From positions 1 to 40,026 of the IMG/VR virus record IMGVR_UViG_3300043331_001462: 40,026 bases of DNA. One strand, given 5' to 3'. The notes under the pieces were generated by a model. The model made no database searches. It worked only from the letters and a program-made list of their open reading frames with translations, and had not been told where the DNA came from. Shown here piece after piece: positions 1-40,026 of this stretch. Source of the DNA: a virus. The translations under genes were made by a program, and so were the position numbers. The number at the start of each line of letters is the position of its first letter. Positions within the stretch are counted from its first letter, which is position 1.

Positions 1-97
1 CCCATGCCTAGAGATCAATCCCGCCGCGCTCGTGACCGCCGCTACGCGGCCGCAGTGGACCGGCAGATCAACGCCATCGCGATCAGCGAGGCGACCG
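1..97. repeat. Terminal direct repeat, copy 1 (identical to 39930..40026)
   Basis: 97/97 nt identity read directly between start and end of window. Confidence 0.95.
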
Positions 98-14250: not shown

Positions 14251-14255
14251 AAGCT

Positions 14256-16365: not shown

Positions 16366-16379
16366 GGAGGCCCGCCGCC

Positions 16380-16598
16380 GTGAAGGTCCGCTCCCCCTAC
16401 GACGAGCCGGTCGACCAGCCGTGGCTCGGCCGGGTGGTCAACCCCGGGCAGGTCGTCGACATCCCCGCCGACCTGCTGCCCAACTTCGTGGCCGCCGGAT
16501 GGAAGCCGGCCGACCCCGAGGCCAGCAAGGCCGCCAAGGAACTGGATGCGGCCGCATCGACCGACGCGCCGGCCGCCGGCGCCACGCAGGAAGGCTGA
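16380..16598 (+). CDS. Hypothetical small protein (72 aa)
   Basis: GTG 16380 lies 9 nt after GAGGAGG. Confidence 0.5.
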   Translation: MKVRSPYDEPVDQPWLGRVVNPGQVVDIPADLLPNFVAAGWKPADPEASKAAKELDAAASTDAPAAGATQEG

Positions 16599-20636: not shown

Positions 20637-22667
20637 GTGGACACCTGCGCGTTCGTCGACTCGATCGGCGAGGTGTACGACGACGTCACCGACGCGTTCG
20701 GCGGCAGCGAATCCAGCACCTGGGGAACCACCGACACCGGCCAGGCCTGGTCCAACGACGGCGGAAGCGCCAGCGACTACTCGGTCGGCTCCGGCACCGG
20801 ATCGCTGTCCCTAGGCTCGGTGGCGGTTTCCCGCCGCCCACACCTGGCCGGAGTCAGCGTCGCCGACGCCGACTCCACCGTCACGATCACCGTGCCCGCG
20901 TTGGCCACCGGCGCGTCCATGTCCGTCGGAGTCACCCACCGCTACGCCGACAGCAGCAACCACCTGCGCGCCGAGCTGGTCTTCCAGACCACCAACGACT
21001 TCATCATCCGGCTCGTGCAGGCCTCCACCAGCGGCGGTGCGCAGATCATGGCCAGCTCCGCCGCCATATCCTCCTACACCGCGGCCAGCAGCTGGAAACT
21101 GCGCGCCCAGATCATCGGCCGCCGCTACCGGGCCAAGGCATGGGCGGCGGCCGACCCGGAGCCGGCCGACTGGAACGTCACCGGCCTAGTCACCGACGCC
21201 GCCGTGGTCGCCGCCGCCGACGCGGTCGGAATCCGCGCCATCCGCGAGACCAGCAACAGCAACGGCACCGTGGCGTTCCTTTTCGACGACTTCACCGTCT
21301 CCAGCCCCAGCCAGATCCGCCTCGATCTCAACGACGGCACCACCTGGGGCCTGGACTACCAGGGCACCAGCCTCGACCCGCCGCCACGCAAGTACGTACG
21401 CGCCGGCGGGCTGATGAGCCAAGGGGAGACCATCCCCGCCGGCGCGTACGCCAACCGCACCTTGCGCCTGTCGCTGGGCCTCAACGCCACCAGCCTCGAC
21501 GACATCGCTACGAAGATCCAGCAGCTGCAGCGCGAGCTGGACCGAACCAGCAACGTGCTGCTGTGGCAGCCCGCCGGCGCCACCCACCCGGTCTACTTCC
21601 GCACGCTGTGGTCGGCCGACCAGCAGATGCAGGTGTTCCCCGGCGACGGCCTCTACCGGGAGATCCGGCTCGAGATGCAGGCCGAGCCGTTCGCGTACGG
21701 GCTGCTGCAAACCCTGGACACGGCAACGGTCACCAACAACCCGGCGTCCAGCTGCTACTTCGACCTGGCGGCCGCCGACATCATCGGCGACGTCGAAACC
21801 CCGGCGATCATGACGTTTGCGTACGCCGGCGTGGAGGACATGGGCCCCACCGCGGTCGGGGTCCGCCGCCACGGAACCCCGTCGCTGATGCCCACCACGC
21901 TGCAGTGCGAGGCCATGACCGGCGGCACCGACACCACCATCCAAGCCAACGACGCCGTGATGTCCGGAAGCGGCCAGAACTACATGCGGTGCACCTACGC
22001 CACCGTGGCCGCGACCATGACGGTGCGGCTGACCAGCTCGACGTTCCCGTCCACCCCCGGCGAGGACGTGCGAGGTACGTACCGGGCGTTCCTGCGCTAC
22101 CGCAAGTCCTCCTCGAGCAACCCCATCAACGTGCAGCTGGGCTGGTCGTTCGGCTCCACCTCGGCCAGCAACCGTGAAGTCGCCCTCGCCTCCACCACCG
22201 ACCGCCGCTGGGTCGACCTGGGTCTGCTCACATATCCGTTCGGCGCCGACCCGATCCACGACCTGTCCGGGGTGGAAATCCCTGCCCGCGGCGGCGTCAT
22301 CACCATCTCCGCCCAACGAACCAGCGGGTCCGGCAACACCGACTTCGATGCCATCGTCCTGGTGCCCGCCGACCCGGCCGACGGCTACTGCCTGGTCACC
22401 TGGCCCACCTCGTCGGGCCCCACGCTCGCCGTCCTGGACGGCAACCGGGAGACCATCTACAACCTCGGCGGATCCGCCGAGGTGTACCCGCGCGAGCTGC
22501 CCAACGTCCGCGGCGTCTTCCCGCACTTGACCCCGAGCCAGGATCACCGCATCGTCGTGCTGCTCAATGCCGGCGGCGGCTCCAGCAGCGACGACATCAC
22601 CGACACCGTCGACGTGACCGTCTCGTACTACCCGCGCTACCTGCTCGTACGTCCGGCCACGACATGA
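20637..22667 (+). CDS. Minor tail protein (distal tail, Dit position) with N-terminal lectin-like domain
   Basis: 676 aa, immediately after the tape measure. The N-terminal ~230 aa look like a LamG/ConA-type module. Confidence 0.75.
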   Translation: MDTCAFVDSIGEVYDDVTDAFGGSESSTWGTTDTGQAWSNDGGSASDYSVGSGTGSLSLGSVAVSRRPHLAGVSVADADSTVTITVPALATGASMSVGVTHRYADSSNHLRAELVFQTTNDFIIRLVQASTSGGAQIMASSAAISSYTAASSWKLRAQIIGRRYRAKAWAAADPEPADWNVTGLVTDAAVVAAADAVGIRAIRETSNSNGTVAFLFDDFTVSSPSQIRLDLNDGTTWGLDYQGTSLDPPPRKYVRAGGLMSQGETIPAGAYANRTLRLSLGLNATSLDDIATKIQQLQRELDRTSNVLLWQPAGATHPVYFRTLWSADQQMQVFPGDGLYREIRLEMQAEPFAYGLLQTLDTATVTNNPASSCYFDLAAADIIGDVETPAIMTFAYAGVEDMGPTAVGVRRHGTPSLMPTTLQCEAMTGGTDTTIQANDAVMSGSGQNYMRCTYATVAATMTVRLTSSTFPSTPGEDVRGTYRAFLRYRKSSSSNPINVQLGWSFGSTSASNREVALASTTDRRWVDLGLLTYPFGADPIHDLSGVEIPARGGVITISAQRTSGSGNTDFDAIVLVPADPADGYCLVTWPTSSGPTLAVLDGNRETIYNLGGSAEVYPRELPNVRGVFPHLTPSQDHRIVVLLNAGGGSSSDDITDTVDVTVSYYPRYLLVRPATT

Positions 22668-27887: not shown

Positions 27888-30041
27888 TCATCGATCCTCC
27901 TCGCTGGTTCGACGCTCCAGTGCGCGGCGCAGCGCGGCCAGATGCACGCCCTTGAGGACCTTGTTGTCGATGCGGACGTTCTTGCTCTCGATGCCCAGGT
28001 TCAGCGAGCGCAGCGTGTTGGAGATCGCGTCCGGGGTGGCGTTGGCGTACCGCTCGGGCAGCTGGTCGGCCATGCGCTCGGCCAGCTGCTGCCACGACAG
28101 AGCGGTCTCGGACGGCAGGAACGCATCGAGAGCATCCGCGAGCGGATCGCGTGCCTGCGCGCCGACCGTCTCGCCGCCGGCCATGCCGTCGAGCAGGCCG
28201 GCCCGCTCGCGCATCCGGCGCGCGGCGTGCAGGATCTTCTCGGCGTCCTGCCCGTCGGCCAGGTAGGTGCGCACGGTGGCGTTGGGCACCGGGGCGTCGT
28301 AGAGGATGCCGACGCCGCGGTACTCGTCGCCGGAGGGCAGCGCGCTGGAGTCGTAGCCCTCGGAGTAGGCGCCGCCACCGAGCACCAGGTCAGAGACCTG
28401 CCAGGCGCCCGTCTTGAGCGCAAAGCGGGTCAGGTGGTTGTCGCGGAAGTCCGTGAACAGCTTGGCCACCTTGCCGGTGGAGCCGATCCCAGACGGACGC
28501 TGAGTGGAGTCCAGCAGGATGACGCCGACCGACGGCCCGACCTTGACCAGGAAGACCAGCAGCTCGGCGATCTCCCGGTCGGTCTCCTCGTCGCCGGTGT
28601 TCAGGTACTCCTGGAACTCATCCAGGACGATCACCCAGACGGGCATGCGGTAGCGCGGGTTGCGGGCGATGTCCCTGGTCAGCTTGCCTTCCGGGCACAC
28701 GTCGGTGGGCAGCTCGGACAGGCGGGCGTTGCGCTGCAGGACGTCGCGCTTGGCGGCGCGCAGGGTGGCGCGCAGGTTCTCGATCGGATCGCCCTGGATC
28801 CGGTCGGGCAACAGCCCGAAGCCGAAGGTGTAGGCGACCAGGGCGAACTTGCGCCAGTCCGGGGAGCCCTTGCCGTCGAACACGGACAGCCGCACGTACG
28901 GATCGAGGGCGGCGAAAAGCGCCAGCAGGCGGGCGGTGAACGTCTTGCCCTTGCGCGGCTGCGCGCCGACCAGCACAGAAGTGAAGATCAGCGGCAGCAT
29001 GACGCGGCGGCCGCGCTCGTCGACGCCCAGCGGCGCGGCCCGCCAGATGTCGCGCGGCTTGCAGTCCAGCAGCGGCGTACGGCCGGCCGGGATGGACAGC
29101 GGGTCGACGTCGGCGACCCACAGCAGGTGCCGGCGCTGGGAGGTCTTGTCCCTGGTCAGGTACACCTGGGACAGCGACACGTCCAGGCCGGAGGCCAGCT
29201 TCTCGCGGGCCTTCATCGCGTCGGAGAACGTCACCCCGTACGGCAGGTCGACCACCACCTGCGATCCTGCGTCGAGCCGGTCGCGGGACATCTTCGACCC
29301 GAACTTGACCTGCTGGCCGGGCTTGTCCGGGTGGCCCAGGCCGGCGGAGTAGTACGCGCGCAGCACCACGTCGGCGTTGAGCACCCGGTGCCGGTTGGTG
29401 ACCACCGCGGCGGACACGATCGGCCGGTCGGCCGGTCGGCCCAGGTGCGCCAGGATCGGCACCAGGACCACCAGGACGACCCACTTCACCCAGCCCGGCG
29501 CGCCCAGCAGCAGCCACGCCACCGCGCCGACCAGGACCAGGACCTCGAGCGCCAACCACACGCCGCGGGCGCCGCGCGCCCGGCGGGCCTCAGTGTGCAG
29601 CTTCACCCACGTCTCGGCGTCGTTCTTGGTCGCCGCGTGCTGGCGCAAGCTGTGCGACTCCATCACCCAGTACCAGGCCAGCTGCCGGCCGGCCAGGCGC
29701 AGCAGCCCGACCACCGCCCACCACGCGGCCAGCAGCAGGTACAGCGGCGAGCGCACGGCGTGGTAGCTGAACCGGTAGCCGGTCAGCTTGGCCGTACGTA
29801 CGCCCGCGCGGCGTACGCCCTGCACGGTGCGCAGGTGCTCCGGGATGACCGGCCGCCGGTCCTGGCGCACCTTGGCCACCGAGTCGACCAGCACCGGCGT
29901 GGCCGGGCCCGGATCGTCGTCCAGGGCGACCTCGAAGCTGGTGTCGTACTCCTCCGGCAACGCCTCCGGTCGCGGCGTCACCTCGCCTGTGTCGGCGGCC
30001 GGCACGGCCACCTCGCGGCCAGGCTCGATCGGCTCGGTCAT
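27888..30041 (-). CDS. FtsK/SpoIIIE-family DNA translocase, TraB-like (717 aa)
   Basis: N-terminal TM helices are present. Walker A is GAQPRKGKT and Walker B is VWVIVLDEFQ. The C-terminus is wHTH-like. ATG 30041 follows AGGGGGCGG, and the longer ORF runs to 30122. Confidence 0.9.
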   Translation of the reverse strand: MTEPIEPGREVAVPAADTGEVTPRPEALPEEYDTSFEVALDDDPGPATPVLVDSVAKVRQDRRPVIPEHLRTVQGVRRAGVRTAKLTGYRFSYHAVRSPLYLLLAAWWAVVGLLRLAGRQLAWYWVMESHSLRQHAATKNDAETWVKLHTEARRARGARGVWLALEVLVLVGAVAWLLLGAPGWVKWVVLVVLVPILAHLGRPADRPIVSAAVVTNRHRVLNADVVLRAYYSAGLGHPDKPGQQVKFGSKMSRDRLDAGSQVVVDLPYGVTFSDAMKAREKLASGLDVSLSQVYLTRDKTSQRRHLLWVADVDPLSIPAGRTPLLDCKPRDIWRAAPLGVDERGRRVMLPLIFTSVLVGAQPRKGKTFTARLLALFAALDPYVRLSVFDGKGSPDWRKFALVAYTFGFGLLPDRIQGDPIENLRATLRAAKRDVLQRNARLSELPTDVCPEGKLTRDIARNPRYRMPVWVIVLDEFQEYLNTGDEETDREIAELLVFLVKVGPSVGVILLDSTQRPSGIGSTGKVAKLFTDFRDNHLTRFALKTGAWQVSDLVLGGGAYSEGYDSSALPSGDEYRGVGILYDAPVPNATVRTYLADGQDAEKILHAARRMRERAGLLDGMAGGETVGAQARDPLADALDAFLPSETALSWQQLAERMADQLPERYANATPDAISNTLRSLNLGIESKNVRIDNKVLKGVHLAALRRALERRTSEEDR

Positions 30042-30217
30042 GACCGCCCCCTGGCCGCGCCCTTGACCGCAGCGAAGCCCAGGTGCACCTGAGCCGGCAG
30101 CAGCAGCAGATCGGGCCGCCACTGGCTACCGGCCTCGGCGTCGGCCAGCAGCTTTGCGGCCGTCTGGGTGTGCTCGTCGGCGGTCATCGCCAGGATCTGC
30201 TCAACGTGTTCGTTCAC
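30038..30217 (-). CDS. Hypothetical small protein (59 aa), not in the ORF track
   Basis: GTG lies 5 nt after GAGGTGA. It has 4-nt overlaps with both neighbouring genes (GTGA and ATGA). Confidence 0.5.
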   Translation of the reverse strand: MNEHVEQILAMTADEHTQTAAKLLADAEAGSQWRPDLLLLPAQVHLGFAAVKGAARGRS

Positions 30218-31020
30218 GGGGTCACCTCGGTCAGGTCCGGGACGTGGCCGTTGACCGGCGTGGCCGGCCGCGTCGCGGCCAGATGGCGGCGCGCGGTGCG
30301 CTCGGACACGGACAGCCGCTTGGCCACGGTGGCCGCGTCGATGGCCGGGTCCTTGGCCACCAACTTGGCCACCAACTTGGCCGTGTCCGTGGCCACCGGT
30401 GGCCGGACAGGTGGCCGCAGCTTGGCCGGCTCGATGGCCACGTGGCCATCCATGGCCACAGGCTCAGATGGCCGCTCGATGGCCACGTGGCCATCCATGG
30501 CCACAGGCTCAGATGGCCGCTCGATGGCCGCGGGCGTGGCCGCGGTGACCGCCGCAGGCGCGGTGTCCGTGGCCACATGGCCGGCCACCGGCTCGCGGTC
30601 CACTGGCCGCCGCCGGCGACTGGTGGCGATTAGCGCGCCCGTGGCCATCACCATCAGGCCGTCGACCGCGAGCGGGCCGATCAACACCGTCAGTCGGTCG
30701 TCGTTGTAGAAGGCCAGCAGCCCGGACAGATGCCGGTACGACACGACGGCGGCAACCCCGGCGACCGGCAGCAGCCCAGCGAAGCGCAGCAGAACCCAGC
30801 GCCTGCCAGCTGGCCATTCGGTCCGCGCAAAGATCTCCACCGCGACGAACAGGGCGAGGGGCCAGAACACGGCACCTACGACCGCGCCGGCCGGGGGCTG
30901 CCATCCGTCCGGCGCGTCATTCGGGGGGACGTACGAGTGGGCCACGTTGGCCGCGATCGACGCCGCGCCACCTAGGAGCGCTCCGAGGTACGCCCATCCT
31001 CGGCCGGTCACGCGGGTCAC
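30214..31020 (-). CDS. DUF2637-like membrane protein with repeat linker and C-terminal HTH
   Basis: VVSYRHLSGLLAFYNDDRLTVLIGPLAVDGLMVMA matches the remembered DUF2637 pattern. The C-terminal HTH is VAKRLSVSERTARRHL. Confidence 0.7.
   Translation of the reverse strand: MTRVTGRGWAYLGALLGGAASIAANVAHSYVPPNDAPDGWQPPAGAVVGAVFWPLALFVAVEIFARTEWPAGRRWVLLRFAGLLPVAGVAAVVSYRHLSGLLAFYNDDRLTVLIGPLAVDGLMVMATGALIATSRRRRPVDREPVAGHVATDTAPAAVTAATPAAIERPSEPVAMDGHVAIERPSEPVAMDGHVAIEPAKLRPPVRPPVATDTAKLVAKLVAKDPAIDAATVAKRLSVSERTARRHLAATRPATPVNGHVPDLTEVTP
30430..30530. repeat. 45-bp tandem repeat x2.2 inside the DUF2637-like gene
   Basis: CTCGATGGCCACGTGGCCATCCATGGCCACAGGCTCAGATGGCCG at 30430..30474 and 30475..30519, plus a partial copy. 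It encodes IERPSEPVAMDGHVA twice. Confidence 0.9.
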
Positions 31021-31292
31021 CGGTCACGCACCTCCTCGACGGGCCGGGTCAGCTGGCGCATGGACACGGCCACGATGATGCAGACCAGGCCGGTCCCGGC
31101 GGCCAGGCAGCCGATGGCCATGGCCAGATGGCCGAGCCCCGCGGCGCCGCCGGCGGACAGCCACGCGCTCGCGAACAACGCGGCCATGACGGCCATCACT
31201 GTGGCCACCGTGACCACGGGGCGGCGGACAGACACTGGCCGGCCGCCGGACAGCTGGCCGCGCTCGGCGGCCTTCACACGCACATCGGTCAT
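31017..31292 (-). CDS. Membrane protein (2 TM, 91 aa), first gene of the transfer operon
   Basis: ATG at 31292. GTGA overlap with the next gene. Confidence 0.6.
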   Translation of the reverse strand: MTDVRVKAAERGQLSGGRPVSVRRPVVTVATVMAVMAALFASAWLSAGGAAGLGHLAMAIGCLAAGTGLVCIIVAVSMRQLTRPVEEVRDR

Positions 31293-31639: not shown

Positions 31640-32548
31640 TCAATCATCCCAAAGAGACGCACCCCGCGTCCGGCCATGGCCGGACGCGGGGGTGCATTCT
31701 GTGTGTGCGTGTGTCCTGCAGAGGGCTACGCGACGGCGGGGAGCGTGCGGACGGCTAGTCGACGCTCCTCGCTGCTCACCTGGGTGTACCGCTCCGTCGT
31801 GTGCGATCGACGCGTGACCGAGAATCTCCTGCGTCGCGCGCAGGTTGCGCGAGCGGCGGTACGTCTCGCTGCCGCACCAGTGCCGCAGCATGTGCATCGT
31901 CACGTCTCGGAAGCCGAGCCGGGTCAGCTGGCGGCTGCCGTACATCGACAGCTTGTGCGCAGCCACGTGCGGCTCGTACCCCGGCAGGTGGAAGATCCGA
32001 CCGAGCGGCAGCGGCTCGACGAGGTGCCAGACCACCGGGTGCGTAGGCACCTCGCGCACCTTGTCGCCCTTGCCGCGGATCCACATCGACTCTTCGGTGA
32101 CGTCCTCCCGATCTAGGGTGACGATCTCCAGGCAGCGCAGGCCGGCGTACGCCGCGAGCCCGAAGTACGTCCGGTAGGGCGCCACCGCACGCCGCATGAT
32201 CTGGCCCAAGGCGGCGGTCGTCACCGGCCGCGGCGGAGGCTTCGGCACCCGGATGCGCGGCAGGCCGACGGACGGGTCCTGGTCGACCAGGCCCATCGTG
32301 AACTTCCACCGGCACCAGGCCTGGATGTGGAACAGGTACACGGCCCTGGTCGCGCGAGACAGACCAGGACGGGCCAGCCAGCTGGCCAGCCGTTGTGTCG
32401 TGGTTGCAGCGGGGTCGGTCCCCAGATACGTCGAAATGGCCCGGACCACTCGGGTCCGCGCCTGGATCGTTCTGGGTGACTGCCCTGCCGCTCGGAGGTG
32501 CTCTACGTGCACAGTCAGGTGCTCGGGAGCACAGCGAAGGGCTTCCAT
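31640..32548 (-). CDS. int: Tyrosine recombinase / integrase, apparently frameshifted before the catalytic Tyr
   Basis: RGKGDKVREVP, HMLRHW and LGHASIA lie in the main frame. The canonical continuation TTERYTQVSSEERRLAVRTLPAVA* lies in another frame (stop 31726..31728) after one extra nt near 31799..31804. Confidence 0.8.
   Translation of the reverse strand: MEALRCAPEHLTVHVEHLRAAGQSPRTIQARTRVVRAISTYLGTDPAATTTQRLASWLARPGLSRATRAVYLFHIQAWCRWKFTMGLVDQDPSVGLPRIRVPKPPPRPVTTAALGQIMRRAVAPYRTYFGLAAYAGLRCLEIVTLDREDVTEESMWIRGKGDKVREVPTHPVVWHLVEPLPLGRIFHLPGYEPHVAAHKLSMYGSRQLTRLGFRDVTMHMLRHWCGSETYRRSRNLRATQEILGHASIAHDGAVHPGEQRGASTSRPHAPRRRVALCRTHAHTECTPASGHGRTRGASLWDD
31660..31694. terminator. Bidirectional hairpin between convergent genes
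   Basis: CACCCCGCGTCCGGCC at GGCCGGACGCGGGG(G)TG, about 16-bp stem. Followed by a TG-rich tract at 31699..31714. Confidence 0.65.
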
Positions 32549-32578: not shown

Positions 32579-32938
32579 TTATGCCGCGTTTGGCCAGGCG
32601 TCGCCACCCGGTCGTACCAGGTCGGATCGCCTAGGTGGCCTAGTTGCGCTACGTGCGCCAATCGCAGCGGAGCGTAGCCAAGAACTAGTACGTACGCCTC
32701 GGTACGCAGTCCGTCTGTCTGTGAGTTCGTCCCGCGTGGGCAAGAGGTCTTGGACCTCAACTCCCAGCTCGCTGGCGATGCGCTCCAGGTCGTTGAGGTC
32801 GATCGCCTGCCGGCCGTTGAGGCGATAGGACACCCACGCGTTGGAGACGTTTAGGCGCCGAGCGAGCTGCTGCCCTGTGATCCGGCGCCGGGCCATCATG
32901 GCCCGGATTTCTTCCGCCACTAGATCCGTAAGAGCCAT
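32579..32938 (-). CDS. XRE-family HTH repressor (CI-like position)
   Basis: The start was chosen by alignment to the divergent paralog (MALTDLVAEEIRAMMARRRITGQQLARRL...). The ORF is open up to 33010. The last ~50 codons have poor GC3. Confidence 0.7.
   Translation of the reverse strand: MALTDLVAEEIRAMMARRRITGQQLARRLNVSNAWVSYRLNGRQAIDLNDLERIASELGVEVQDLLPTRDELTDRRTAYRGVRTSSWLRSAAIGARSATRPPRRSDLVRPGGDAWPNAA
32774..32806. repeat. 33-bp inverted repeat, arm 1 (partner 33204..33236)
   Basis: GGCGATGCGCTCCAGGTCGTTGAGGTCGATCGC is the exact reverse complement of 33204..33236. Confidence 0.9.
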
Positions 32939-33065
32939 AGGTCTATCCGTCGGTGTGGTGGTCATACCGCGATGTTCGGCCGTCTGGACGTAACCGTCAA
33001 GGTGATTCACAAAATCTTGGCATCAGTCTCTTGACGGCTTTAGCTATAGCGTAAACCATGGCGCT

Positions 33066-33290
33066 ATGCCCGACAGCTTGCAGACATACGTTGCGGCCGA
33101 GATTCGCGCCGAGATGGCTCGCCGCCGGATCACAGGGCAACAACTAGCCGGCGCGCTAGGACGCAGCAACGCCTGGATCTCAGTGCGGCTCGCTGGCAAG
33201 CAAGCGATCGACCTCAACGACCTGGAGCGCATCGCCGATGCGCTGGACGTGTCGGCCGACCAACTCCTGCCAGCGAGGTCCGCAGCATGA
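33066..33290 (+). CDS. XRE-family HTH regulator (Cro-like position), paralog of 32579..32938
   Basis: EIRAEMARRRITGQQLAGALGRSNAWISVRLAGKQAIDLNDLERIADAL. It is divergent from the other XRE gene. Confidence 0.8.
   Translation: MPDSLQTYVAAEIRAEMARRRITGQQLAGALGRSNAWISVRLAGKQAIDLNDLERIADALDVSADQLLPARSAA
33204..33236. repeat. 33-bp inverted repeat, arm 2
   Basis: GCGATCGACCTCAACGACCTGGAGCGCATCGCC. Confidence 0.9.
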
Positions 33291-33685
33291 CGCCGATCTG
33301 CGTGCGCTGCGCGTATGACGTGTCGGCCGGCCGGCCGGCTCAGGCGAGCTGTCCCGCGTGCCAGCGAGCGCTGCTGCTCGACGTGGCGTTCTCGCCGCGA
33401 TACCGCGGGGTGCCGCTGGACCGCATGGCCGCAGGTCTGATCGCGCTGATCGCAGCCGGCGTCGCCGTGGCTGCGAACACGTCCCTTGTGGTGCTCGGCG
33501 CGGCCGCCGCTGTGGTGGTCGCTGCCGTGTACGCCCTGATCCCCCGCCGTCGTCTCACTGGCCTGGCTCGACGGCGGGCCTTTCGTCGCGCCCACCGGCC
33601 GGGCGCGTCGGCGGCCGCCGCTGCCCCGTCGAGTGGCTCCCCGATCGCTGTGCAGCGGCGGCCGCAACCTACCACCCGTCAGTAG
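33287..33685 (+). CDS. Zinc-ribbon membrane protein (132 aa)
   Basis: ATGA overlap with the upstream gene. CVRC...CPAC is followed by two hydrophobic helices and a basic tail. Confidence 0.6.
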   Translation: MTPICVRCAYDVSAGRPAQASCPACQRALLLDVAFSPRYRGVPLDRMAAGLIALIAAGVAVAANTSLVVLGAAAAVVVAAVYALIPRRRLTGLARRRAFRRAHRPGASAAAAAPSSGSPIAVQRRPQPTTRQ

Positions 33686-33687
33686 CA

Positions 33688-33720
33688 GGGCCCCGCGGCG
33701 CGTGCACGCCGACGGGGCCC
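33688..33720 (+). terminator. Imperfect hairpin GGGCCCCG...CGGGGCCC
   Basis: 8-bp outer stem plus an inner GGCG/CGCC pairing. No U-tract. Confidence 0.35.
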
Positions 33721-33758
33721 CTACCGGCTCAACCCCAGAGGACCCCTGGAGGTTCCGG

Positions 33759-34190
33759 ATGAACGACACCCTACCGACCCTGGATCAGGTCGAGCGCGAG
33801 CGCTACCAGCACGCCCTCGCCGGCCTGTCCTACGCGGCGCTGCAGGAGCAGCGCATCGCCCTGGCCGTACGGGCGCTGAGCGGCGACTGGATCTGCGCCC
33901 AACTCCTGCCGATCGTGTCGGCCGAGGCCGACGCCAGGCCTGAGGGCAAGGCCGCCGAGCTGCTCCGCCAGGAGTGGCGGGTCGAGTCGTGGCTGCACCC
34001 CGACCGGCGCCGATCCGCCCCCGCCTGGCGGCTGGCCGAGTACGACCCGGCGGCCGACATCGGCACGGCCGAGCCACTCGACGACGAGCCCATCGAGCAG
34101 TGCCACCCATCGATCGCGTTCATCGAGTTCATCGACCACATCCCGCAGGCCGCGGCCGCCCGCCGCAGGCTCGTGCTCAGGGAGGCCTGA
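33759..34190 (+). CDS. Hypothetical protein (143 aa)
   Basis: ATG follows GGAGG. It is the internal start of ORF 33633..34190. Confidence 0.6.
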   Translation: MNDTLPTLDQVERERYQHALAGLSYAALQEQRIALAVRALSGDWICAQLLPIVSAEADARPEGKAAELLRQEWRVESWLHPDRRRSAPAWRLAEYDPAADIGTAEPLDDEPIEQCHPSIAFIEFIDHIPQAAAARRRLVLREA

Positions 34191-34191
34191 C

Positions 34192-34971
34192 ATGACCACC
34201 ACCAGCATGTTCACCACCGGCGACCGGGTCGACGTCACCATCCGCGGCGCCCGGTTCGAACGCCGCGACGAGCACCACGTCGACGTCTACCTCGCCGGCA
34301 TCGACTCGCCGATCTGCGTGCCGACCGTCGACGACGACGGCGAGCCCCTGGACGCCGTGACCGTCGGCCACCACGTCCCGGTCGTGCGGCCCGGCGAGGT
34401 GTGGCAGGCCCGCGACACCGGCGCGCTGTTCCTGTGCACGCAACTCGACGACAACCCGCCGCAGCTGATCGCCGCCGACCAGCACGCCTACGACCCGCAG
34501 GCCGTGGTCGACCACTGGGGGCCGATCGACTGCATCGCCAGCAGCGCCTACGTGGACCCGGCGCCGCCGGAGCAGCGCCCGCACCCCGACGCCGTCCTGG
34601 TCTCGGTCGTGGATGTGCGCCTCTTCGACCGGGTGTTCAACGCCGGCACCTGGCACAACGTGCTCGGCGACGAGAACCCCGACGGCAAGATGGCCGAGCA
34701 CCGCCGCTTCTACACCGACCACGCCTCGGCCGGTCTGCTCTACCAGTACACCGACGACGTGTGGGTGCTGCGCGCGGCCGCCGCCCCGATCTACGCCGCG
34801 GTCGAGCCCTGGGCGCCGCCGGCGCCGGACGCGGCCTGGTCGGGGTTCCTGCGCCCGGACGACGAGCCGCAGCCCGGCGACAAGGTGCTCGACCTGCCCA
34901 CGATCGACCAGGTCGCCCCGGCGGTGCTCCTCGACGAGCCGGCCACCGAAACGCCGGAGCTGGCGCGGTGA
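34192..34971 (+). CDS. Hypothetical protein (259 aa)
   Basis: The ATG lies 1 nt after the upstream stop. GC3-rich. Confidence 0.65.
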   Translation: MTTTSMFTTGDRVDVTIRGARFERRDEHHVDVYLAGIDSPICVPTVDDDGEPLDAVTVGHHVPVVRPGEVWQARDTGALFLCTQLDDNPPQLIAADQHAYDPQAVVDHWGPIDCIASSAYVDPAPPEQRPHPDAVLVSVVDVRLFDRVFNAGTWHNVLGDENPDGKMAEHRRFYTDHASAGLLYQYTDDVWVLRAAAAPIYAAVEPWAPPAPDAAWSGFLRPDDEPQPGDKVLDLPTIDQVAPAVLLDEPATETPELAR

Positions 34972-35372
34972 CCGGCGTGGAGCATCCCACCTGGTGCAAG
35001 CCCCGTCTGTGCACCGCCGCGGTCGATGGTCTGCCGTTCGCCGAAGGCGAGCACCGCTCGGAGACCGTCCGGCTGGCTACCGACCTGATCGTGTGGCCGG
35101 TGCAGAACACCGTCGTGTCGGCGTACCTGACCCAACGCGCGCCCAGCACGGCCTGGCCGACGGTGGCCTACCTGCACATCCAGTCCGACGTGCACGGCGT
35201 CATCGCGCACCTGCCGCTCGAGGTGTTCTTCACCGTCGTCGGCCAGGTAGGTCAACTGGCGCAGCTCGTCGTGCCACCCGCCGCGGGCGCCGCGGAGCAG
35301 CCGCCCGCGCCGACGCGGCGTCTGCAATGGCCCACCGGGTACGGCCCGACCATCCAGCCAGGAGGCCTGTGA
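34968..35372 (+). CDS. Hypothetical protein with EHPTWC motif (134 aa)
   Basis: GTGA overlap with the upstream gene. Confidence 0.6.
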   Translation: MTGVEHPTWCKPRLCTAAVDGLPFAEGEHRSETVRLATDLIVWPVQNTVVSAYLTQRAPSTAWPTVAYLHIQSDVHGVIAHLPLEVFFTVVGQVGQLAQLVVPPAAGAAEQPPAPTRRLQWPTGYGPTIQPGGL

Positions 35373-35872
35373 TGCCGCGCGAGCCTGTCCCGTACGAGCT
35401 CCTGGTCGCCGTCGCGCTGCTGGCTGTATGCGTCGTCGCGGCCCTGTGGGCCGGCGTGTGGAACCTGCGCCGGGCCAGCCAACCCACCATCGCCGACCGT
35501 GACGTGCAGCAGCGCATCGCCGGCCGCGCCGCCGTGGTCCTGCCCGCCGGGCCGCCGCCGCAGCCGCCGGCCAAACCGGTGTTCCCCGCCGGCCCGCCAG
35601 CCGCGCCGTTCCCCGCCGGCGCCGACCAGCACACGCCGGTCTGGCTAGCCGACGACACCGCCGACCGCCGCGAGGTCCTGGCCCACCGCCTGGTCCGGCC
35701 CCTCGACCGCACCGTCGAGGGCTACCTGGTCCGCGACGGCGACCGCGAGTACGGCTGGAAGACGGAAGCAGGGCTGGCCATAGCGACCCGCAACGTGCGC
35801 TTCTGCGCCCGGTGTTGGCCGCCAATCCCGGTGATGCCCGGCCACACCCTGCCTCGCCGGCGGCCGTCATGA
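35372..35872 (+). CDS. Membrane-anchored Pro-rich protein (166 aa)
   Basis: TGATG overlap, following AGGAGG. The N-terminal TM segment is LLVAVALLAVCVVAALWAGVW. Confidence 0.6.
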   Translation: MPREPVPYELLVAVALLAVCVVAALWAGVWNLRRASQPTIADRDVQQRIAGRAAVVLPAGPPPQPPAKPVFPAGPPAAPFPAGADQHTPVWLADDTADRREVLAHRLVRPLDRTVEGYLVRDGDREYGWKTEAGLAIATRNVRFCARCWPPIPVMPGHTLPRRRPS

Positions 35873-37251
35873 TCCTGCACAGCAGGCACCGCTTGAACGG
35901 TCACCGGCCGGCCGCCGGCGTCAGCTGGCTGCGGCTGACCCTGCTGGTGTTCGCGCCGGCCGCCGCGGTGACCGCCCTCTACGTCGGCCGGGTACACCTG
36001 GTGTGGCTGGTCTCGGCCTACGGGGCGCTGTCGCTGACCCGGGTGGCCGCCCAGTCCTGGATGGCCGCCCGCGTGCGCCGCCGCGTCCAGCCGCTGATCG
36101 GCCGGCCAATGGTGTCCATCGTCGTCGCGACCCTCAACCCCGACCCGGACCGGTTCGAGGAGGCGATCGCCTCCCTGGCCGGGCAGGACTGGCCGGCCGA
36201 CCGCCTCGAGGTCATCGTGGTCGACGACGGCTCCGACAGCCCGCACCTGGTCAGCCAGGTATGCAAGCGGCACGGCGCCCGCTACGTCTACCAGGCCAAC
36301 GCCGGCAAACGCCACGCCATGCACCGCGCGTTCGGCATGCTGCACCCGGCCACCAGGTACGTGCTCACCGGCGACGACGACACGGTTTGGCATCGCGACG
36401 CCACCCGCCACCTGGTCGCCGCCCTGCAACGCGACCGGGTCGGCGCCACCACCGGCCACGTCGCGACCCTCAACCCCGACGACACCTGGCTGACCCGGGT
36501 CACCGCCATCCGCTACTGGGTGGCCTTCCAGATCGAACGCGCCGCCCAGTCCTACTACGGCGCCGTCACCTGCGTGTCCGGCCCACTGGGCGGCTACCGC
36601 CGCTACCTGATCGACCAGATCGGCGACGACTTCGTCAACCAGCGGTTCCTGCGCCGCCCGTGCACCTTCGGCGACGACCGGCACCTGACCAACCTCGTGC
36701 TGGCCCGCGGCTACCAGGTCACCTACAGCCGCGCCCAGGCGTGGACCGAGGTGCCCGGCCGCATGCGCAAATACCTCAAGCAGCAGAAACGCTGGGGCAA
36801 GTCGCACTGGCGGGAGATGATCTGGACCGCCAAGGCGCTGCCGCTGCACTCGCCGATGCTGGCCGCCGACTGGGCGCTGACCCTGCTCCTGCCGTTCCTG
36901 CTGGTCGCCTCCATGGCCTGGTACGCCTGGTCGGCCGTCACCGACAGCCCGCTCTACCTGGCCGGCTTCGCCGCCATGGTCGTCGCCATGTCGATCGTGC
37001 GTGCCGTCCCCGCCGTGGTGGCCACCCGCGACCCGTCCTTCCTGTGGTGGATGCCGTTTTTCAGCGTGTTCCACCTGTTCGTGCTGCTGCCGCTGAAGTT
37101 CGTCTCGCTCGTCACGGTGGCTGATGGCAGCTGGGGCACCCGCGCCATCGGCGCGCCAGCCCAGCGGGTGTTCGAGCTGCATGAGGCGGCCACCGAGGAG
37201 TTCGCCCGCATCCCCGTCCAGCGCACCCCGGAGGCCACCGATGTCCGCTGA
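35869..37251 (+). CDS. Processive family-2 glycosyltransferase, HasA/NodC-like (hyaluronan/chitin-oligosaccharide synthase-like)
   Basis: Motifs VSIVVATLNP, VIVVDDGSD, LTGDDDTVW, VSGPLGGYRR, FGDDRHLTN and YLKQQKRWGKSHWRE, plus N- and C-terminal TM helices. ATGA-coupled start, with the ORF open from 35812. Confidence 0.88.
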   Translation: MILHSRHRLNGHRPAAGVSWLRLTLLVFAPAAAVTALYVGRVHLVWLVSAYGALSLTRVAAQSWMAARVRRRVQPLIGRPMVSIVVATLNPDPDRFEEAIASLAGQDWPADRLEVIVVDDGSDSPHLVSQVCKRHGARYVYQANAGKRHAMHRAFGMLHPATRYVLTGDDDTVWHRDATRHLVAALQRDRVGATTGHVATLNPDDTWLTRVTAIRYWVAFQIERAAQSYYGAVTCVSGPLGGYRRYLIDQIGDDFVNQRFLRRPCTFGDDRHLTNLVLARGYQVTYSRAQAWTEVPGRMRKYLKQQKRWGKSHWREMIWTAKALPLHSPMLAADWALTLLLPFLLVASMAWYAWSAVTDSPLYLAGFAAMVVAMSIVRAVPAVVATRDPSFLWWMPFFSVFHLFVLLPLKFVSLVTVADGSWGTRAIGAPAQRVFELHEAATEEFARIPVQRTPEATDVR

Positions 37252-37483
37252 GCCGCGCCCAACCAAGGTGCCACCGCACGCCTTCGACGAGGACCCCAAC
37301 GTGCCCCCGGACTGGACCGGCCGGCGCACCTGCCGCTGCCACCTGATCGGCGAAGCCGGCGACCAGCACCACCCAGTCGACGCCGAACCGCTGTCGTCCA
37401 CCCTGCTGCCGCCGACGCCCGAGCCGGCCCGCGAGATCGACACCCGACGGCTGGGCGAACGCCCGGATGAGGAAGCCGCCTGA
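37241..37483 (+). CDS. Hypothetical small protein (80 aa)
   Basis: The ATG overlaps the GT2 gene end. Contains a CRCH motif. Confidence 0.5.
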   Translation: MSAEPRPTKVPPHAFDEDPNVPPDWTGRRTCRCHLIGEAGDQHHPVDAEPLSSTLLPPTPEPAREIDTRRLGERPDEEAA

Positions 37484-38001
37484 TGGACGTCACGACCGTG
37501 CTGCTGGCCGAGTACAGCCAACTCAAGGCCGAGCAAATCCACCGCATCGGCGTCCGCGACAACCTCGTGTACGCCACCCTGGCCGCTGTCGCCGCCGTGG
37601 TGGTCGGCGCCACGCAGTCGCCCGCCGGCGTGCACCTGCTCCTCGCGTTGCCGCCGGCCTGCGCGCTGCTGGGCTGGACCTTCCTGGCCAACGACCAACG
37701 GATCACCGCCATCGGCGTGTACCTGCGCGACGGCCTGACGCCCAGCCTCAGCGTCGCCGCGGGCGCCCAGGCCCTGGGCTGGGAACGGCACCGGCTGGAT
37801 GACAGCCGGCGACGGCGCCGCAAGCGCGTGCAGCTCGCCGCTGACCTCGGCACGTTCTGCCTGCCCGGCCTGGCCGCGCTGCTCGTCTACTGGGCGTACG
37901 CCCCGCGGCACCTGTGGCTGTACGCGGTGTCGCTGGCCGACTTCGCGGTCGTCGCCGGCCTGGTCTACCTGATCGTCAGCTACCGCGAGAGGCGGGACTA
38001 A
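37483..38001 (+). CDS. Integral membrane protein (about 4 TM, 172 aa)
   Basis: ATGA overlap with the upstream gene. Four hydrophobic segments and a central RRRRRKR loop. Confidence 0.65.
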   Translation: MDVTTVLLAEYSQLKAEQIHRIGVRDNLVYATLAAVAAVVVGATQSPAGVHLLLALPPACALLGWTFLANDQRITAIGVYLRDGLTPSLSVAAGAQALGWERHRLDDSRRRRRKRVQLAADLGTFCLPGLAALLVYWAYAPRHLWLYAVSLADFAVVAGLVYLIVSYRERRD

Positions 38002-38003
38002 GG

Positions 38004-38369
38004 ATGCCTGATCACGATGTCCAGAAGATCGCCGTGCTCGTGACACCGACCTCGGGCCGGCCTGCGCAGCCGCGCGAGGTCCGCGCCGAGATGGTCGCCC
38101 CTGGCCTGGCCATCGCCCCCGCCTTCAGATACGGACAGAAGGTGAGCAGCCGCTGGTCGCTCGTGCACACGCCATCCGGCCGGCACCTGAGCGGCAAGGC
38201 CTGCTGTCGCGGTTGCGTTGAGGAGGCCGCCAAGCGGGCCGTCGCAAGCGGCGTGGACTGGTCCCGCAGCGAGGTTGAGGTCAGGGCCGACGAGTCCGCG
38301 AAGGCGCTCCACGAGAAGCTCTTCGCCGCTGGCCTGGCGTTGTCCTGCGACGGCGAGGAGTGCGGCTGA
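38004..38369 (+). CDS. Hypothetical protein (121 aa)
   Basis: The ATG lies 2 nt after the upstream stop. It is the internal start of ORF 37914..38369. Confidence 0.55.
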   Translation: MPDHDVQKIAVLVTPTSGRPAQPREVRAEMVAPGLAIAPAFRYGQKVSSRWSLVHTPSGRHLSGKACCRGCVEEAAKRAVASGVDWSRSEVEVRADESAKALHEKLFAAGLALSCDGEECG

Positions 38370-38602
38370 TGCCGGCGGGGATGGTGCGCCCGCGCGCCTC
38401 GCAGGTGCCTCCGCTCGGCGCCGACGCGATCGCCGAGTACCAGCGCGCCGGCTGGCACATCACCGCCGGCGGCCGGGTCTGCGCCGGGGCCACCACCGGG
38501 CCCTGCGCGGCCTGCTCACGACCCACCAGGCGGTACCGGCTCGGCGGCGGCCCGCTGTGCCGGTCCTGCCGCCCAAAGCCAGAAGGAGATATCCGGCGAT
38601 GA
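38369..38602 (+). CDS. Hypothetical zinc-ribbon protein (77 aa)
   Basis: TGATG overlap with the upstream gene. CAAC...CRSC. Confidence 0.5.
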   Translation: MPAGMVRPRASQVPPLGADAIAEYQRAGWHITAGGRVCAGATTGPCAACSRPTRRYRLGGGPLCRSCRPKPEGDIRR

Positions 38603-38997
38603 CAAATCCAGACGACCTGAGCCCGATGGACCGGCTGCGGCAGGAGTACGCCGAGAACGAACTGGACCACGACCGCAACCCGACCGAGGACGGCTTCGTC
38701 GAGTGGCTCGTTCGACAGGTCCATCAGGCGCGCGGCGCCGCTTCGGCGCACCGGGCGTACATCTCAGCCGGCGGGCACGCTGACCGAATCGCGTCACGGC
38801 TGAGCAGCGCTGCCGAGGCTTTTGGGCGGTTCCTCGGGCCGGTTGAGACCGACGTCGAAAAGGGCCTAAACAGCCTTCATGCGGGTGACCCGCTCCCGGC
38901 CGTCGCGGCGCTGGAAGACATCGCCCGCGCCTTCCGCCTGCTGAACCTGAGTCTCGGCGGCACCGACCCGGAGGGATGCGTGACTTCCGATGACTAG
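38599..38997 (+). CDS. Hypothetical protein (132 aa)
   Basis: ATGA overlap with the upstream gene. Confidence 0.55.
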   Translation: MTNPDDLSPMDRLRQEYAENELDHDRNPTEDGFVEWLVRQVHQARGAASAHRAYISAGGHADRIASRLSSAAEAFGRFLGPVETDVEKGLNSLHAGDPLPAVAALEDIARAFRLLNLSLGGTDPEGCVTSDD

Positions 38998-39463
38998 TGA
39001 CGACACGTGGGACGACCTTGACGGGGTCGCGCAGTGGATCGAGGACGACGCGGTCGGCGAGGACGACCAGGTCCGCGAGTTCGCCGCCTCGGTCGCCGCC
39101 CGCATCCGCGACCGAGCCCGAGAGGACGTCTCGCCCATCGAACGCGGCTACCAGCGCGCGATCGAGCACCTGCGCGATGGCGAGACGTTCATGGTCTGGT
39201 ACCGCAGCCGCCGACGGATGTCCGACCGCACGTACGCCGAGGTGGCAGCCGAGTACCTGACATCCCGTCGCCGCGGCTGGCCCTCGGGCGGCAAGCCGGC
39301 CGGGGGATTCCAGACCTGCGCCGGATGCGGTGACGACATCTGGCCGAACGAGCAGACGTACCCGGCCGACGCCAGCGGTGACACCAGCGAGGCGGCCGGC
39401 GTGCAGTGCCTGGTGTGCGAGGTCAGGACCCGTCGCACCGAAGGGAGCAGTAGGGGTGAGTAG
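38990..39463 (+). CDS. Hypothetical acidic protein with C-terminal CxxC...CxxC (157 aa)
   Basis: The ATG overlaps the upstream stop by 8 nt. Confidence 0.55.
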   Translation: MTSDDTWDDLDGVAQWIEDDAVGEDDQVREFAASVAARIRDRAREDVSPIERGYQRAIEHLRDGETFMVWYRSRRRMSDRTYAEVAAEYLTSRRRGWPSGGKPAGGFQTCAGCGDDIWPNEQTYPADASGDTSEAAGVQCLVCEVRTRRTEGSSRGE

Positions 39464-39926
39464 GTACGCCGAGCGAACTGAGGTCTCCAGCGACCGCTCC
39501 CGCGCCGAGATCGAGCGGACCCTGCGCCGGTACGGGGCGAGCGCGTTCGCGTACGGATGGGACCACCAGCGGGCCACGATCGCGTTCGAGATGGCCAGCC
39601 GGCGCATCATGTTCCGGCTCCCGATGCCGGACCCGACCGCGCCGGAGTTCACCCGCACCCCGACGGGCAAGAGCCGCTCCCCGTCGGCCGCCGAGGTTGC
39701 CTACGAGCAGGCAGTGCGGCAGCGGTGGCGGGCGCTCGCGCTGGTCATCAAGGCCAAGCTCGAAGCAGTCGCCGCCGGCATAACCACCGTGGAGCAGGAA
39801 TTCCTCGCCCACATCCAGCTCCCCAGCGGACAGACGGTCGGCGAATGGGCCGCACCGCAGCTTGCCTTGACGTACGAACGCGGCTCGATGCCCGCTTTGA
39901 TGCCCGGCACCGGCGAGGAGGGATAG
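39456..39926 (+). CDS. Conserved-looking hypothetical protein (156 aa)
   Basis: GTG lies 8 nt after AAGGGAG. The protein begins VSRYAERTEVSSDRSRAEIERTLRRYGA. Confidence 0.6.
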   Translation: MSRYAERTEVSSDRSRAEIERTLRRYGASAFAYGWDHQRATIAFEMASRRIMFRLPMPDPTAPEFTRTPTGKSRSPSAAEVAYEQAVRQRWRALALVIKAKLEAVAAGITTVEQEFLAHIQLPSGQTVGEWAAPQLALTYERGSMPALMPGTGEEG

Positions 39927-39929
39927 CTA

Positions 39930-40026
39930 CCCATGCCTAGAGATCAATCCCGCCGCGCTCGTGACCGCCGCTACGCGGCCGCAGTGGACCGGCAGATCAA
40001 CGCCATCGCGATCAGCGAGGCGACCG
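39930..40026. repeat. Terminal direct repeat, copy 2 (contains the truncated duplicate start of the gene at 4..342, ATG 39933)
   Basis: Identical to 1..97. Confidence 0.95.

Follow-up and report, generated by a model that had tools for sequence, protein, structure and literature searches.

Why would a bacteriophage carry, among its early genes, a membrane protein with the appearance of a polysaccharide synthase, and what might such an enzyme make? The question is raised by a 460-aa protein encoded in the IMG/VR virus record IMGVR_UViG_3300043331_001462, positions 1 to 40,026 of which form the whole stretch of DNA analysed here, referred to throughout as the window (40,026 nt, 71% GC). An earlier note, made from the sequence alone, had described the protein as a HasA/NodC-like processive glycosyltransferase (GT) of family 2 (GT2), embedded in an early phage operon together with membrane partners. 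The results presented here suggest that the gene is probably an accessory cassette within the early, Cro-side operon of a temperate actinophage, and that its product is a processive beta-glycan synthase of the class I hyaluronan synthase (HAS) type, integrated in the membrane and made of a single subunit.

A membrane-integrated, HAS-like glycosyltransferase

All four open reading frames (ORFs) reported at this locus, for proteins of 166, 460, 80 and 172 aa, were found (Table 1), and as their GC content at third codon positions (0.88-0.95) is that expected in a sequence of 71% GC, they are read as real genes. The motifs quoted for the 460-aa protein, DDGSD, GDDDT, SGPLGGYRR, FGDDRHLTN and YLKQQKRWGKSHWRE (the last at aa 301-315), are all present in its translation, and the HasA and NodC motifs cited for comparison in the earlier note hold in real sequences; FGDDRCLTN and KQQLRWNKSF in Bacillus anthracis HasA, FGEDRHLT and RQQLRWARS in NodC. 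Hydropathy and an AlphaFold2 (AF2) model built from 37 homologues (pLDDT 88, pTM 0.86) both place transmembrane (TM) helices on either side of the GT domain, those of the model spanning residues 16-39 and 50-70 before it and 329-358, 362-386 and 390-415 after it.

It is HAS that the protein matches best. A phmmer search of the Protein Data Bank (PDB) returned Xenopus laevis HAS1 (XlHAS1; E 7e-54) and the Chlorella-virus HAS (CvHAS; E 4e-41) as the best matches, and the top 13 Foldseek matches to the model were all HAS structures, with TM-scores of 0.71-0.80 over ~410-470 columns; the first of these was XlHAS1 8smp (TM-score 0.80, full length, 470 columns, E 8e-30). Cellulose and chitin synthases gave 0.42-0.56 and non-processive wall or DNA GT2s ~0.37-0.40. 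The Pfam matches were to GT2 families (E 1.6e-18) and to Chitin_synth_2 (59 bits), the latter not being specific to chitin synthases (CHS) (PMC5122149), and the protein was assigned to no PADLOC family and to no PHROG family at E <= 0.01. The NodC profile of NCBIfam (TIGR04242) was matched over its full length (E 3e-65) with 220.7 bits, against an equivalog cut-off of 550 bits; in control searches Sinorhizobium meliloti NodC scored 751 bits and HasA of B. anthracis pXO1 204.6 bits, and because a genuine HasA scores about the same as the window protein (205 vs 221 bits), this match signals membership of the superfamily only. Sequence and predicted structure together confirm a membrane-integrated GT2 of the HAS/NodC/chitin-synthase superfamily and of processive type.

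The commonest job of phage-encoded GT2s is a different one, the non-processive addition of single sugars to DNA, teichoic acid, lipid carriers or virion proteins, and in the BFVD viral structure library all bacteriophage matches covered the GT-A domain only, the full-length matches being giant-virus proteins only. For the 460-aa protein, however, such a role is extremely unlikely in view of its QxxRW, GDDR and WGTR motifs, its five or more TM helices and its full-length superposition on HAS; the teichoic-acid and rhamnose transferases TarP and RmlT gave TM-scores of only 0.37-0.40, and GtrB-like and AglJ-like profiles no more than 24 bits. Non-processive best homologues had been named in advance as the outcome that would speak against a processive synthase, and it was HAS that came first with phmmer and Foldseek alike.

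Four other identities were considered and set aside. NodC was ruled out by its profile score (221 vs 550 bits), by the HAS-type motif variants of the window protein and by a NodC clade which is monophyletic (100% bootstrap) to the exclusion of that protein; PgaC/IcaA (TIGR03937) by 72 bits against a cut-off of 422 and the absence of PgaD/IcaD partner genes; chitin synthase by TM-scores to Chs1, Chs2 and PsChs1 of 0.46-0.56 compared with 0.80 for HAS; and BcsA by a match limited to residues 80-144 (E 5e-3) and TM-scores of 0.42-0.53. The motifs of CHS-type enzymes are QRRRW and EDR, and BcsA carries a PilZ domain and an FxVTxK gating loop.

Active site, channel and possible products

The roles of individual HAS residues were taken from mutagenesis or cryo-EM studies (PMC11750622, PMC12987647) and mapped by sequence alignment. 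The features by which a class I HAS is recognised were found as follows: the GT-A DxD(T) motif (GDDDT) together with the GKR lysine (K147); C265-T-F-GDDRHLTN and Q305-Q-K-R-W309, in columns that are invariant in the 37 homologues; a WGT(R/S) gating loop (S-W422-G-T-R425); and, in the AF2 model, the fold itself, with two N-terminal TM helices, the GT domain, and interface and TM channel helices. The basic channel residues which contact glucuronic acid (GlcA) are likewise present, as judged by alignment only. Linkage to ugd, which is typical of such enzymes though not strictly defining, is lacking in the window and in the loci of the phage clade described below. The full HAS fold, with all of the catalytic, acceptor, priming-loop, switch-loop and gating-loop residues, is shown by the model and the alignments of the 460-aa protein.

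With XlHAS1 (PDB 8smm, 8smn, 8smp), the best match in both sequence and structure, identity is 26-34%, and the mutationally defined active-site, channel and gating-loop residues are all kept or conservatively replaced (Table 1). The two differ in that the gating loop is WGTSGRK/R in XlHAS1 and WGTR in the phage enzyme, in the replacement of H72 by Arg, and in the absence from the phage enzyme of the C-terminal TMH5-6 pair which follows the gating loop. R58, R215, R224 and R378 correspond in the alignment to the four basic channel positions that in XlHAS1 contact the nascent chain or control chain length; the XlHAS1 counterparts of the second and third of these, R287 and R296, stabilise GlcA-2 (PMC11750622).

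The bacterial class I HasA proteins (B. anthracis pXO1 and the has-like operons of Lactobacillales) have the same minimal architecture, ending just after WGTR, and have the GDDR(C/H)LTN and QQxRWNKSF motifs in common with the phage enzyme at 30-38% identity. Bacterial hasA is, however, flanked by ugd (hasB) with or without galU, a linkage not seen in the phage or its clade, and the phage clade branches apart. Rhizobial NodC is of the same superfamily and the same length, at 32-36% identity, but has Glu at the position of R287, Tyr at H72, Cys at F292 and Ser at that of the priming Cys, and its variants MEYW, CCCGPC, S-D-F-GEDRHLT, QQLRWARS and DWLSR are not those of the phage enzyme. Scans with Pfam and PHROG found no nodA, nodB, nodI or nodJ neighbours and no deacetylase gene in the window.

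The earlier note had also stated that UDP-sugar precursor genes were missing, and this was borne out by a UDP-glucose-dehydrogenase motif scan and by Pfam and PHROG scans of all large ORFs, none of which found such a gene in the window. The GGxC[LF]xKD motif was absent from the window and from all loci of the phage clade, and adjoins the GT gene in six Lactobacillales loci, one Chloroflexota locus and pXO1. As the phage has no ugd, any synthesis of hyaluronan would depend on UDP-GlcA from the host.

A true phage HAS of this kind, making the alternating GlcA/N-acetylglucosamine (GlcNAc) polymer from host UDP-GlcA, is one of two products that we hold tentatively. All five HAS signature motifs are in their HAS and not their NodC variants (YG in TM2, DxDT, C-T-F-GDDRHLTN, QQxRWxKSxxRE and WGTR), and the predicted channel is no less basic than that of HAS, with R58, R215, R224 and R378, where NodC has Tyr at the first and Glu at the second of these; to this may be added the part played by R287 and R296 in holding GlcA-2, the HAS identity of the best sequence and fold matches, and the placing of the clade beside eukaryote/giant-virus HAS in 46% of bootstraps as opposed to 6% for NodC. 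Against this, the prokaryotic has-like operons sampled do have an adjacent ugd and neither the phage nor its clade members do, and the "HAS" variants occur also in hundreds of homologues from Candidate Phyla Radiation (CPR) bacteria, archaea and actinobacteria, many beside exosortase-like genes, such that these variants may be ancestral rather than specific to hyaluronan.

The other candidate, open to the same degree of doubt, is a GlcNAc homopolymer or oligomer (chitin-like or a chito-oligosaccharide) formed from UDP-GlcNAc alone; no other substrate can be counted on in every host. Vertebrate HAS given UDP-GlcNAc alone yields chitin oligomers. There is no ugd linkage, and the phage enzyme is no further from real NodC (32-36% identity) than from real HasA (30-34%). 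Some chloroviruses carry chs instead of has (PMC5408694). However, the NodC cut-off is missed by a protein scoring 221 of 550 bits, much as the genuine HasA does at 205, the NodC-specific residues (Glu at R287, CCCGPC, GEDR, DWLSR) are missing, there is no nodA, nodB or deacetylase gene, and the fold resembles that of true chitin synthases far less closely (TM-score about 0.46-0.56). The basic channel and HAS-type motifs lean towards a hyaluronan-like acidic polymer and the absence of ugd linkage across the clade leans towards a GlcNAc homopolymer, and judged from sequence the two products appear about equally likely.

A largely phage-borne clade

A search of 5.8 billion proteins recovered 483 relatives of the synthase. 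The closest, at 81% identity, lies on L001 (the labels are those given to the loci compared), a syntenic fragment of a sister phage; relatives with 47-66% identity lie on plainly phage contigs (L004, L006-8, L130, L131 and L132), which are marked as such by many small ORFs, integrase, amidase or SLT lysins, tail genes, HNH, a single-stranded DNA-binding protein, Tad3 and DUF3310. A single-protein scan of IMG/VR found no relatives, but an alignment-based scan of it found four more, at 40-46% identity, on viral contigs of 22-41 kb with a GC content of 0.44-0.49. Close relatives are present in at least ~11 distinct phage contigs, as a stand-alone cassette, and the GC content of the clade's contigs ranges from 44 to 72%. 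Automated annotation by the Joint Genome Institute labels some of the metagenomic relatives "hyaluronan synthase".

The reference sequences for the phylogeny were NodC genes carried on the symbiosis plasmids of rhizobia and the hasA gene of pXO1, where galU and ugd accompany it. Compared in 284 core columns, the window protein has an identity of 36-38% with the has-like proteins of Lactobacillales, 34-36% with NodC, 34% with both B. anthracis HasA and XlHAS1, and 31% with CvHAS. A neighbour-joining (NJ) tree was bootstrapped with Kimura-corrected p-distances, L096 (Gaiellales) being left out of the bootstrap; the window protein falls in a clade made up mostly of uncultured phage contigs and a few Micromonosporaceae genes (73% bootstrap), and the NodC and the eukaryote/giant-virus HAS groups are each 100% monophyletic. 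The phage clade was sister to the latter group in 46% of bootstraps and to NodC in 6%.

The nearest cellular relatives are those of Micromonosporaceae (Luedemannella, 56-57%; Actinoplanes lutulentus, 53%), and a more distant cellular family extends to CPR bacteria, DPANN and other archaea, and uncultured Actinomycetota. Homologues in uncultured Actinomycetota (L074, L082, L086 etc., n=17) and in archaea (L050, L059 etc., n=12) adjoin exosortase-/archaeosortase-like proteins with a CSG motif, and small C-terminally anchored proteins are encoded nearby; this fits a weak match of the window protein to TIGR03111 ("XrtG-associated GT"), although the context of these cellular relatives is uninformative as to the sugar. 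In A. lutulentus (QLMJ01000029, L002/L049, ~6561-16413) the homologue carries R224->F and Y216->T, and its gene is translationally coupled to the one upstream, which encodes 1147 aa with a NACHT domain and ~10-14 hydrophobic segments; within 8 kb there are also genes for a QatC homologue (PADLOC E 1e-57) and for a protein with a FokI cleavage domain, as well as part of an integrase gene. This locus may be a defence island using a HAS-like effector.

Some of the phage contigs have features of their own. On L130, a 40-kb contig, an SLT-type lytic transglycosylase gene (9609-10004) overlaps the start of the GT homologue, and the contig end (1-780) holds an NAD-epimerase/dehydratase gene and a Polysacc_synt_C fragment. 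L132 encodes, in the same early region as its GT homologue, a Pfam Tad3 protein (974-1636), which we take to be anti-Thoeris.

Among cultured phages the full-length relatives were limited to gp79 of Streptomyces phage Kromp (MH744420) and the environmental Caudovirales record GX15bay, at ~27% identity. Kromp gp79, annotated as a glycosyltransferase, is likewise a full-length membrane GT2 of this superfamily with WGTR, encoded among early or non-structural genes; it is, however, 26-27% identical to the phage enzyme and of a different clade, and its core motifs are degenerate, with FSDDSLLT for GDDRHLTN, MYMRW for QQxRW and Trp at the position of R215. The earlier note, whose author was aware of no such enzyme in actinophages, has to be qualified by this distant relative and by the at least ~11 uncultured phage contigs with close ones.

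An exchangeable cassette in the early operon

The window is a complete, circularly closed assembly of the ~39.9-kb genome of a temperate siphovirus-type actinophage. Its first 97 bases are identical to its last 97, and PHROG and Pfam scans identified the large terminase (TerL), portal, major capsid, tail tube and tape measure proteins, a FtsK-like protein, a tyrosine integrase and a divergent cI/Cro-type pair of helix-turn-helix (HTH) regulators; it is the terminal repeat together with the terminase and structural genes from which completeness as a phage genome follows. The same findings led to the integrative and conjugative element (ICE) half of the "phage/ICE" designation in the earlier note being dropped. 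The same phage is present in at least two other samples. Its lineage appears to be uncultured, since TerL is at most 33% identical to those of cultured phages, every match being an actinophage, and megablast against INPHARED gave no DNA match to known phages for 33000-40026.

Genes of the rightward operon overlap or abut from ~33759 to beyond 38369, and the GT gene lies 2.8 kb into this Cro-side operon; its assignment to the early rightward operon is upheld by the ORF map and the gene junctions. Coupling by ATGA overlaps, which had been claimed for the GT and its neighbours, is true of the tightness of the junctions but literally of the 166-aa/GT junction only, the 134-aa/166-aa and 80-aa/172-aa junctions being TGATG with a 1-nt overlap and the GT/80-aa overlap being 11 nt. 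No terminator-like or promoter-like site was found on the + strand from 33290 to 38600, the promoter scan using a sigma-70 consensus that fits actinobacteria poorly.

The membrane proteins on either side had been taken for partners of the synthase, a hypothesis that was dropped when a sister phage without the GT, L137, was found. L137 is close to the window (integrase 89%, FtsK-like protein 88%, early-operon proteins 59-77% identical), and its DNA homology covers window positions 33219-35853, breaks off, and resumes from 37230; the 1.38-kb GT gene is missing in between and the 166-aa and 80-aa genes are kept on either side of the gap. In its place (L137 10473-10653) stands an ORF of 54 aa whose N-terminal half is hydrophobic and whose tail is acidic (MTQLLIVAVAVILASALTLLGLFVVAVLLVSAADKALEVPEPDDDELEEATDVC), and which represents another membrane cargo for this hot spot. 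L001 lacks the 172-aa protein, relatives of which are encoded in Frankia, Asanoa and Planobispora and on contigs that have no GT. The 166-aa protein has only three homologues among the 5.8 billion proteins, one of which is on L137. The 166-, 80- and 172-aa proteins matched nothing in Pfam, NCBIfam, PADLOC or PHROG, apart from one sub-threshold match to an Rv0361 TM family.

Phages further removed have other genes around the GT, unrelated to those of the window, and when every protein of the operon was compared with 124 loci by tblastn, L001 alone proved syntenic. As L137 replaces the gene, the 172-aa family occurs without it and the distant neighbours are unrelated, the GT is, from these gene comparisons, an autonomous and exchangeable cassette for which no conserved partner appears to be needed. 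Such autonomy agrees with class I HAS, the active form of which is a monomer that both synthesises and translocates its polymer (PMC11750622).

Possible role in infection

In the scheme proposed, lifting of the repressor would lead to transcription of the GT together with the early lytic genes, as suggested by gene order only. The enzyme would then become part of the host membrane, its GT-A domain facing the cytoplasm, an orientation with which the positive-inside rule agrees (an Arg/His-rich N-terminus and a RVRRRV stretch after TM2), and would consume host UDP-GlcNAc, plus UDP-GlcA if the host supplies it. A growing GlcNAc-containing polymer, hyaluronan- or chitin-like, could be pushed through the enzyme's own TM channel into the cell envelope. 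By analogy with the HAS and CHS of chloroviruses, this polymer may coat the infected cell and hinder the adsorption of competing or progeny phages, or may otherwise remodel the envelope; surface masking against further adsorption is our leading, albeit speculative, idea of the role.

The closest known parallel is A98R of chlorovirus PBCV-1, i.e. CvHAS (PDB 7sp6-7spa, 8snc-e, 9yq2-5), which is likewise a virus-encoded single-subunit class I synthase of the same fold (TM-score 0.71-0.75), with the same DxD, GDDR, QxxRW and WGTR motifs, and whose gene is early in the virus programme as the phage GT is in an early operon. Differences exist in sequence (about 23-31% identity) and in length, the PDB chains of CvHAS having 570-574 residues; the extra length presumably represents additional C-terminal TM helices. 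PBCV-1 infects a eukaryotic alga and encodes UDP-Glc dehydrogenase and GFAT (PMC5408694), while the phage is without any precursor enzyme. Both has and chs are early genes in chloroviruses, fibres coat the cell by 15 min after infection and the attachment of other viruses is later reduced, yet the function of the fibres is still a puzzle; their synthesis has been known since the 1990s and its purpose is unsettled partly for want of reverse genetics (PMC5408694).

Several observations weigh against an early-expressed class I HAS-type synthase. No ugd is found in the phage or beside any close homologue, and K177 and R341, the GlcA-carboxylate contacts of CvHAS, do not tell hyaluronan from chitin because they are conserved across the superfamily. 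The 39 columns invariant across 37 homologues and a dN/dS of ~0.4 for the synthase indicate a functional enzyme, to go by its sequence conservation, but 0.4 represents moderate constraint only; the tree is a simple NJ one, in which 73% support for the clade is moderate; and the timing of transcription rests on gene order, with a promoter consensus (sigma-70) poorly suited to actinobacteria. Moreover, the L006 homologue adjoins an integrase and has intergenic spacers of its own, a position more typical of morons expressed from a prophage.

This last observation bears on the proposal that the gene serves lysogenic conversion, i.e. that a prophage-expressed exopolysaccharide or capsule protects the lysogen through biofilm formation or from desiccation or predators, or excludes superinfection permanently. 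The phage is temperate, with an integrase and cI/Cro pair, the cassette is moron-like in behaviour, and in L006-L008 the homologue stands beside the integrase with non-coding spacers on both sides. We nevertheless regard this as unlikely for the window, where the GT gene begins 2.8 kb into a Cro-side operon, with a start codon overlapping the gene before it and no promoter-like site picked up by the scan; operons of this kind are normally repressed in lysogens.

It is less likely still that the polymer is a by-product and that the point of the enzyme is metabolic or toxic, either a drain on UDP-GlcNAc which shuts down the synthesis of peptidoglycan and wall polymers and thus aids takeover or lysis, or a membrane-perturbing effector. 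The A. lutulentus homologue would fit, as it is translationally coupled to the NACHT and multi-TM protein, 3 kb from the QatC defence gene and near the FokI-type nuclease gene and integrase fragment in an abortive-infection-like arrangement, and so would the overlap of the SLT lytic transglycosylase gene with the GT start in L130. However, the link to NACHT is a single case in a copy without R224 and Y216, in the phage enzymes the residues of the channel, the gating loop and processivity are all conserved, which a mere UDP-GlcNAc hydrolase would not need, and early self-poisoning would bring a temperate phage little.

The kind of enzyme and the concept of a virus-encoded HAS are already known; what is new is the distinct, largely phage-borne clade and the behaviour of its gene as a cassette in an actinophage early operon. 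A full-text literature search found no description of a bacteriophage-encoded processive membrane synthase of class I HAS/NodC type. A bolder and, taken as a whole, rather doubtful proposal is that phages of several host groups (contig GC 44-72%) share this previously undescribed clade and use it early to extrude a hyaluronan-/chitin-like coat as a barrier in virus-virus or virus-host conflict, a prokaryotic counterpart of chlorovirus fibres, and that cells may have connected a copy to a NACHT sensor, as an effector of abortive infection. As the cassette is found in at least ~11 phage contigs and a distant relative in the cultured phage Kromp, bacteria amenable to genetics could be used to ask why a virus should make a polysaccharide outside the cell. 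The clade is also a set of compact, single-gene HAS-like enzymes (408-482 aa), a potential resource for glycopolymer engineering, and the NACHT-coupled cellular homologue hints at a possible new class of defence effector; should the product prove to be a common exopolysaccharide without any effect on infection, what is left is a new phage accessory gene.

Table 1. Features of the window, with residues of the 460-aa protein and their XlHAS1 counterparts
Feature	Position in window	Strand	Residues in 460-aa protein	XlHAS1 residues	Basis or remark
Class I HAS-like processive GT2 synthase, 460 aa	35869..37251	+			2 N-terminal TM helices, cytosolic GT-A domain, interface and TM helices, WGTR gating loop
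DDGSD, first nucleotide-binding Asp motif	36223..36237	+	119-123		read from sequence; D120, G121, S122 invariant in 37 homologues
GDDDT, DxD(T) metal- and UDP-binding motif	36370..36384	+	168-172		alignment with HAS and NodC
SGPLGGYRR, switch-loop region, after C235	36577..36603	+	237-245		residue roles from PMC11750622
FGDDRHLTN, GDDR catalytic-base motif	36667..36693	+	267-275		alignment; priming-loop Cys C265 just upstream
QQKRW, QxxRW acceptor/processivity motif	36781..36795	+	305-309		sequence, AF2 model, alignment; in interface helix 299-321
WGTR, gating-loop motif	37132..37143	+	422-425		alignment; gating-loop role from PMC11750622; DWLSR at this place in NodC; additional to the motifs of the earlier note
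GKR lysine			K147	K218	
Channel entrance			R215	R287	
Channel entrance			R224	R296	
Acceptor collar			Y216, F220	Y288, F292	
Switch-loop Cys			C235	C307	
Priming-loop Cys			C265	C337	
GDDR motif			D270, R271	D342, R343	
QxxRW motif			R308, W309	R381, W382	
Acceptor collar			S312	S385	
Mid-channel basic			R378	K448	
Mid-channel basic			R58	H72	
Gating loop			W422	W491	
Exchangeable cassette	35853..37230	+			no DNA homology in L137 (blastn, tblastn); ~160 bp with 54-aa TM ORF there instead
166-aa protein, N-terminal TM anchor, Pro-rich linker (14.5% Pro), C-terminal domain; backbone gene	35372..35872	+			hydropathy; 71% identity in L137
80-aa Pro-rich, Cys/His-containing backbone protein	37241..37483	+			68% identical in L001, 77% in L137
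172-aa protein, four hydrophobic segments; separate variable cassette	37483..38001	+			absent from L001 and L137
Tyrosine integrase	31640..32548	-			PHROG 1 integrase, E 3.7e-23; marks phage as temperate
cI-like HTH repressor, divergent	32579..33010	-			Pfam HTH_26, HTH_31, HTH_3
Cro-like HTH, first gene of tightly packed rightward operon with GT	33066..33290	+			ORF map; L001 homologue carries HTH_31
97-bp exact terminal direct repeat	1..97 = 39930..40026	no strand			marks complete circular or circularly permuted ~39.9-kb genome

Other features of the phage genome

The cI-like and Cro-like regulators are paralogues, with the stretch RRRITGQQLA...AIDLNDLERIA in common. No tRNA genes were found in the window. 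Upstream of the terminase genes lie an Eco57I-type N6 DNA methyltransferase and two HNH-endonuclease ORFs (679-2052, 4772-5857 and 6826-7467), and the sister phage L001 has a C5 DNA methylase in place of this methyltransferase. A 676-aa protein of the tail region (20637-22667) matches a PHROG annotated as phosphodiesterase over aa 19-227 (E 1e-23) and may be a wall-polymer-degrading tail enzyme; it is without a Pfam match, and Pfam matches to polysaccharide-degrading domains were not found in the tail proteins.

On the Logan contigs L135 and L136 (2229-4136 and 4467-5015), lone genes for homologues of the 172-aa protein are divergent from that for a 635-aa protein with a PNP_UDP_1 domain, such as defence effectors often contain. 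The leftward module adjoining the integrase (27888-31292, - strand) encodes a 744-aa FtsK/SpoIIIE-like protein (PHROG 1358) and a 268-aa protein with weak DUF2637 and HTH_11 matches, a gene pair reminiscent of the transfer genes of actinomycete conjugative elements (AICE), yet found within a tailed-phage genome and 88% conserved in L137.

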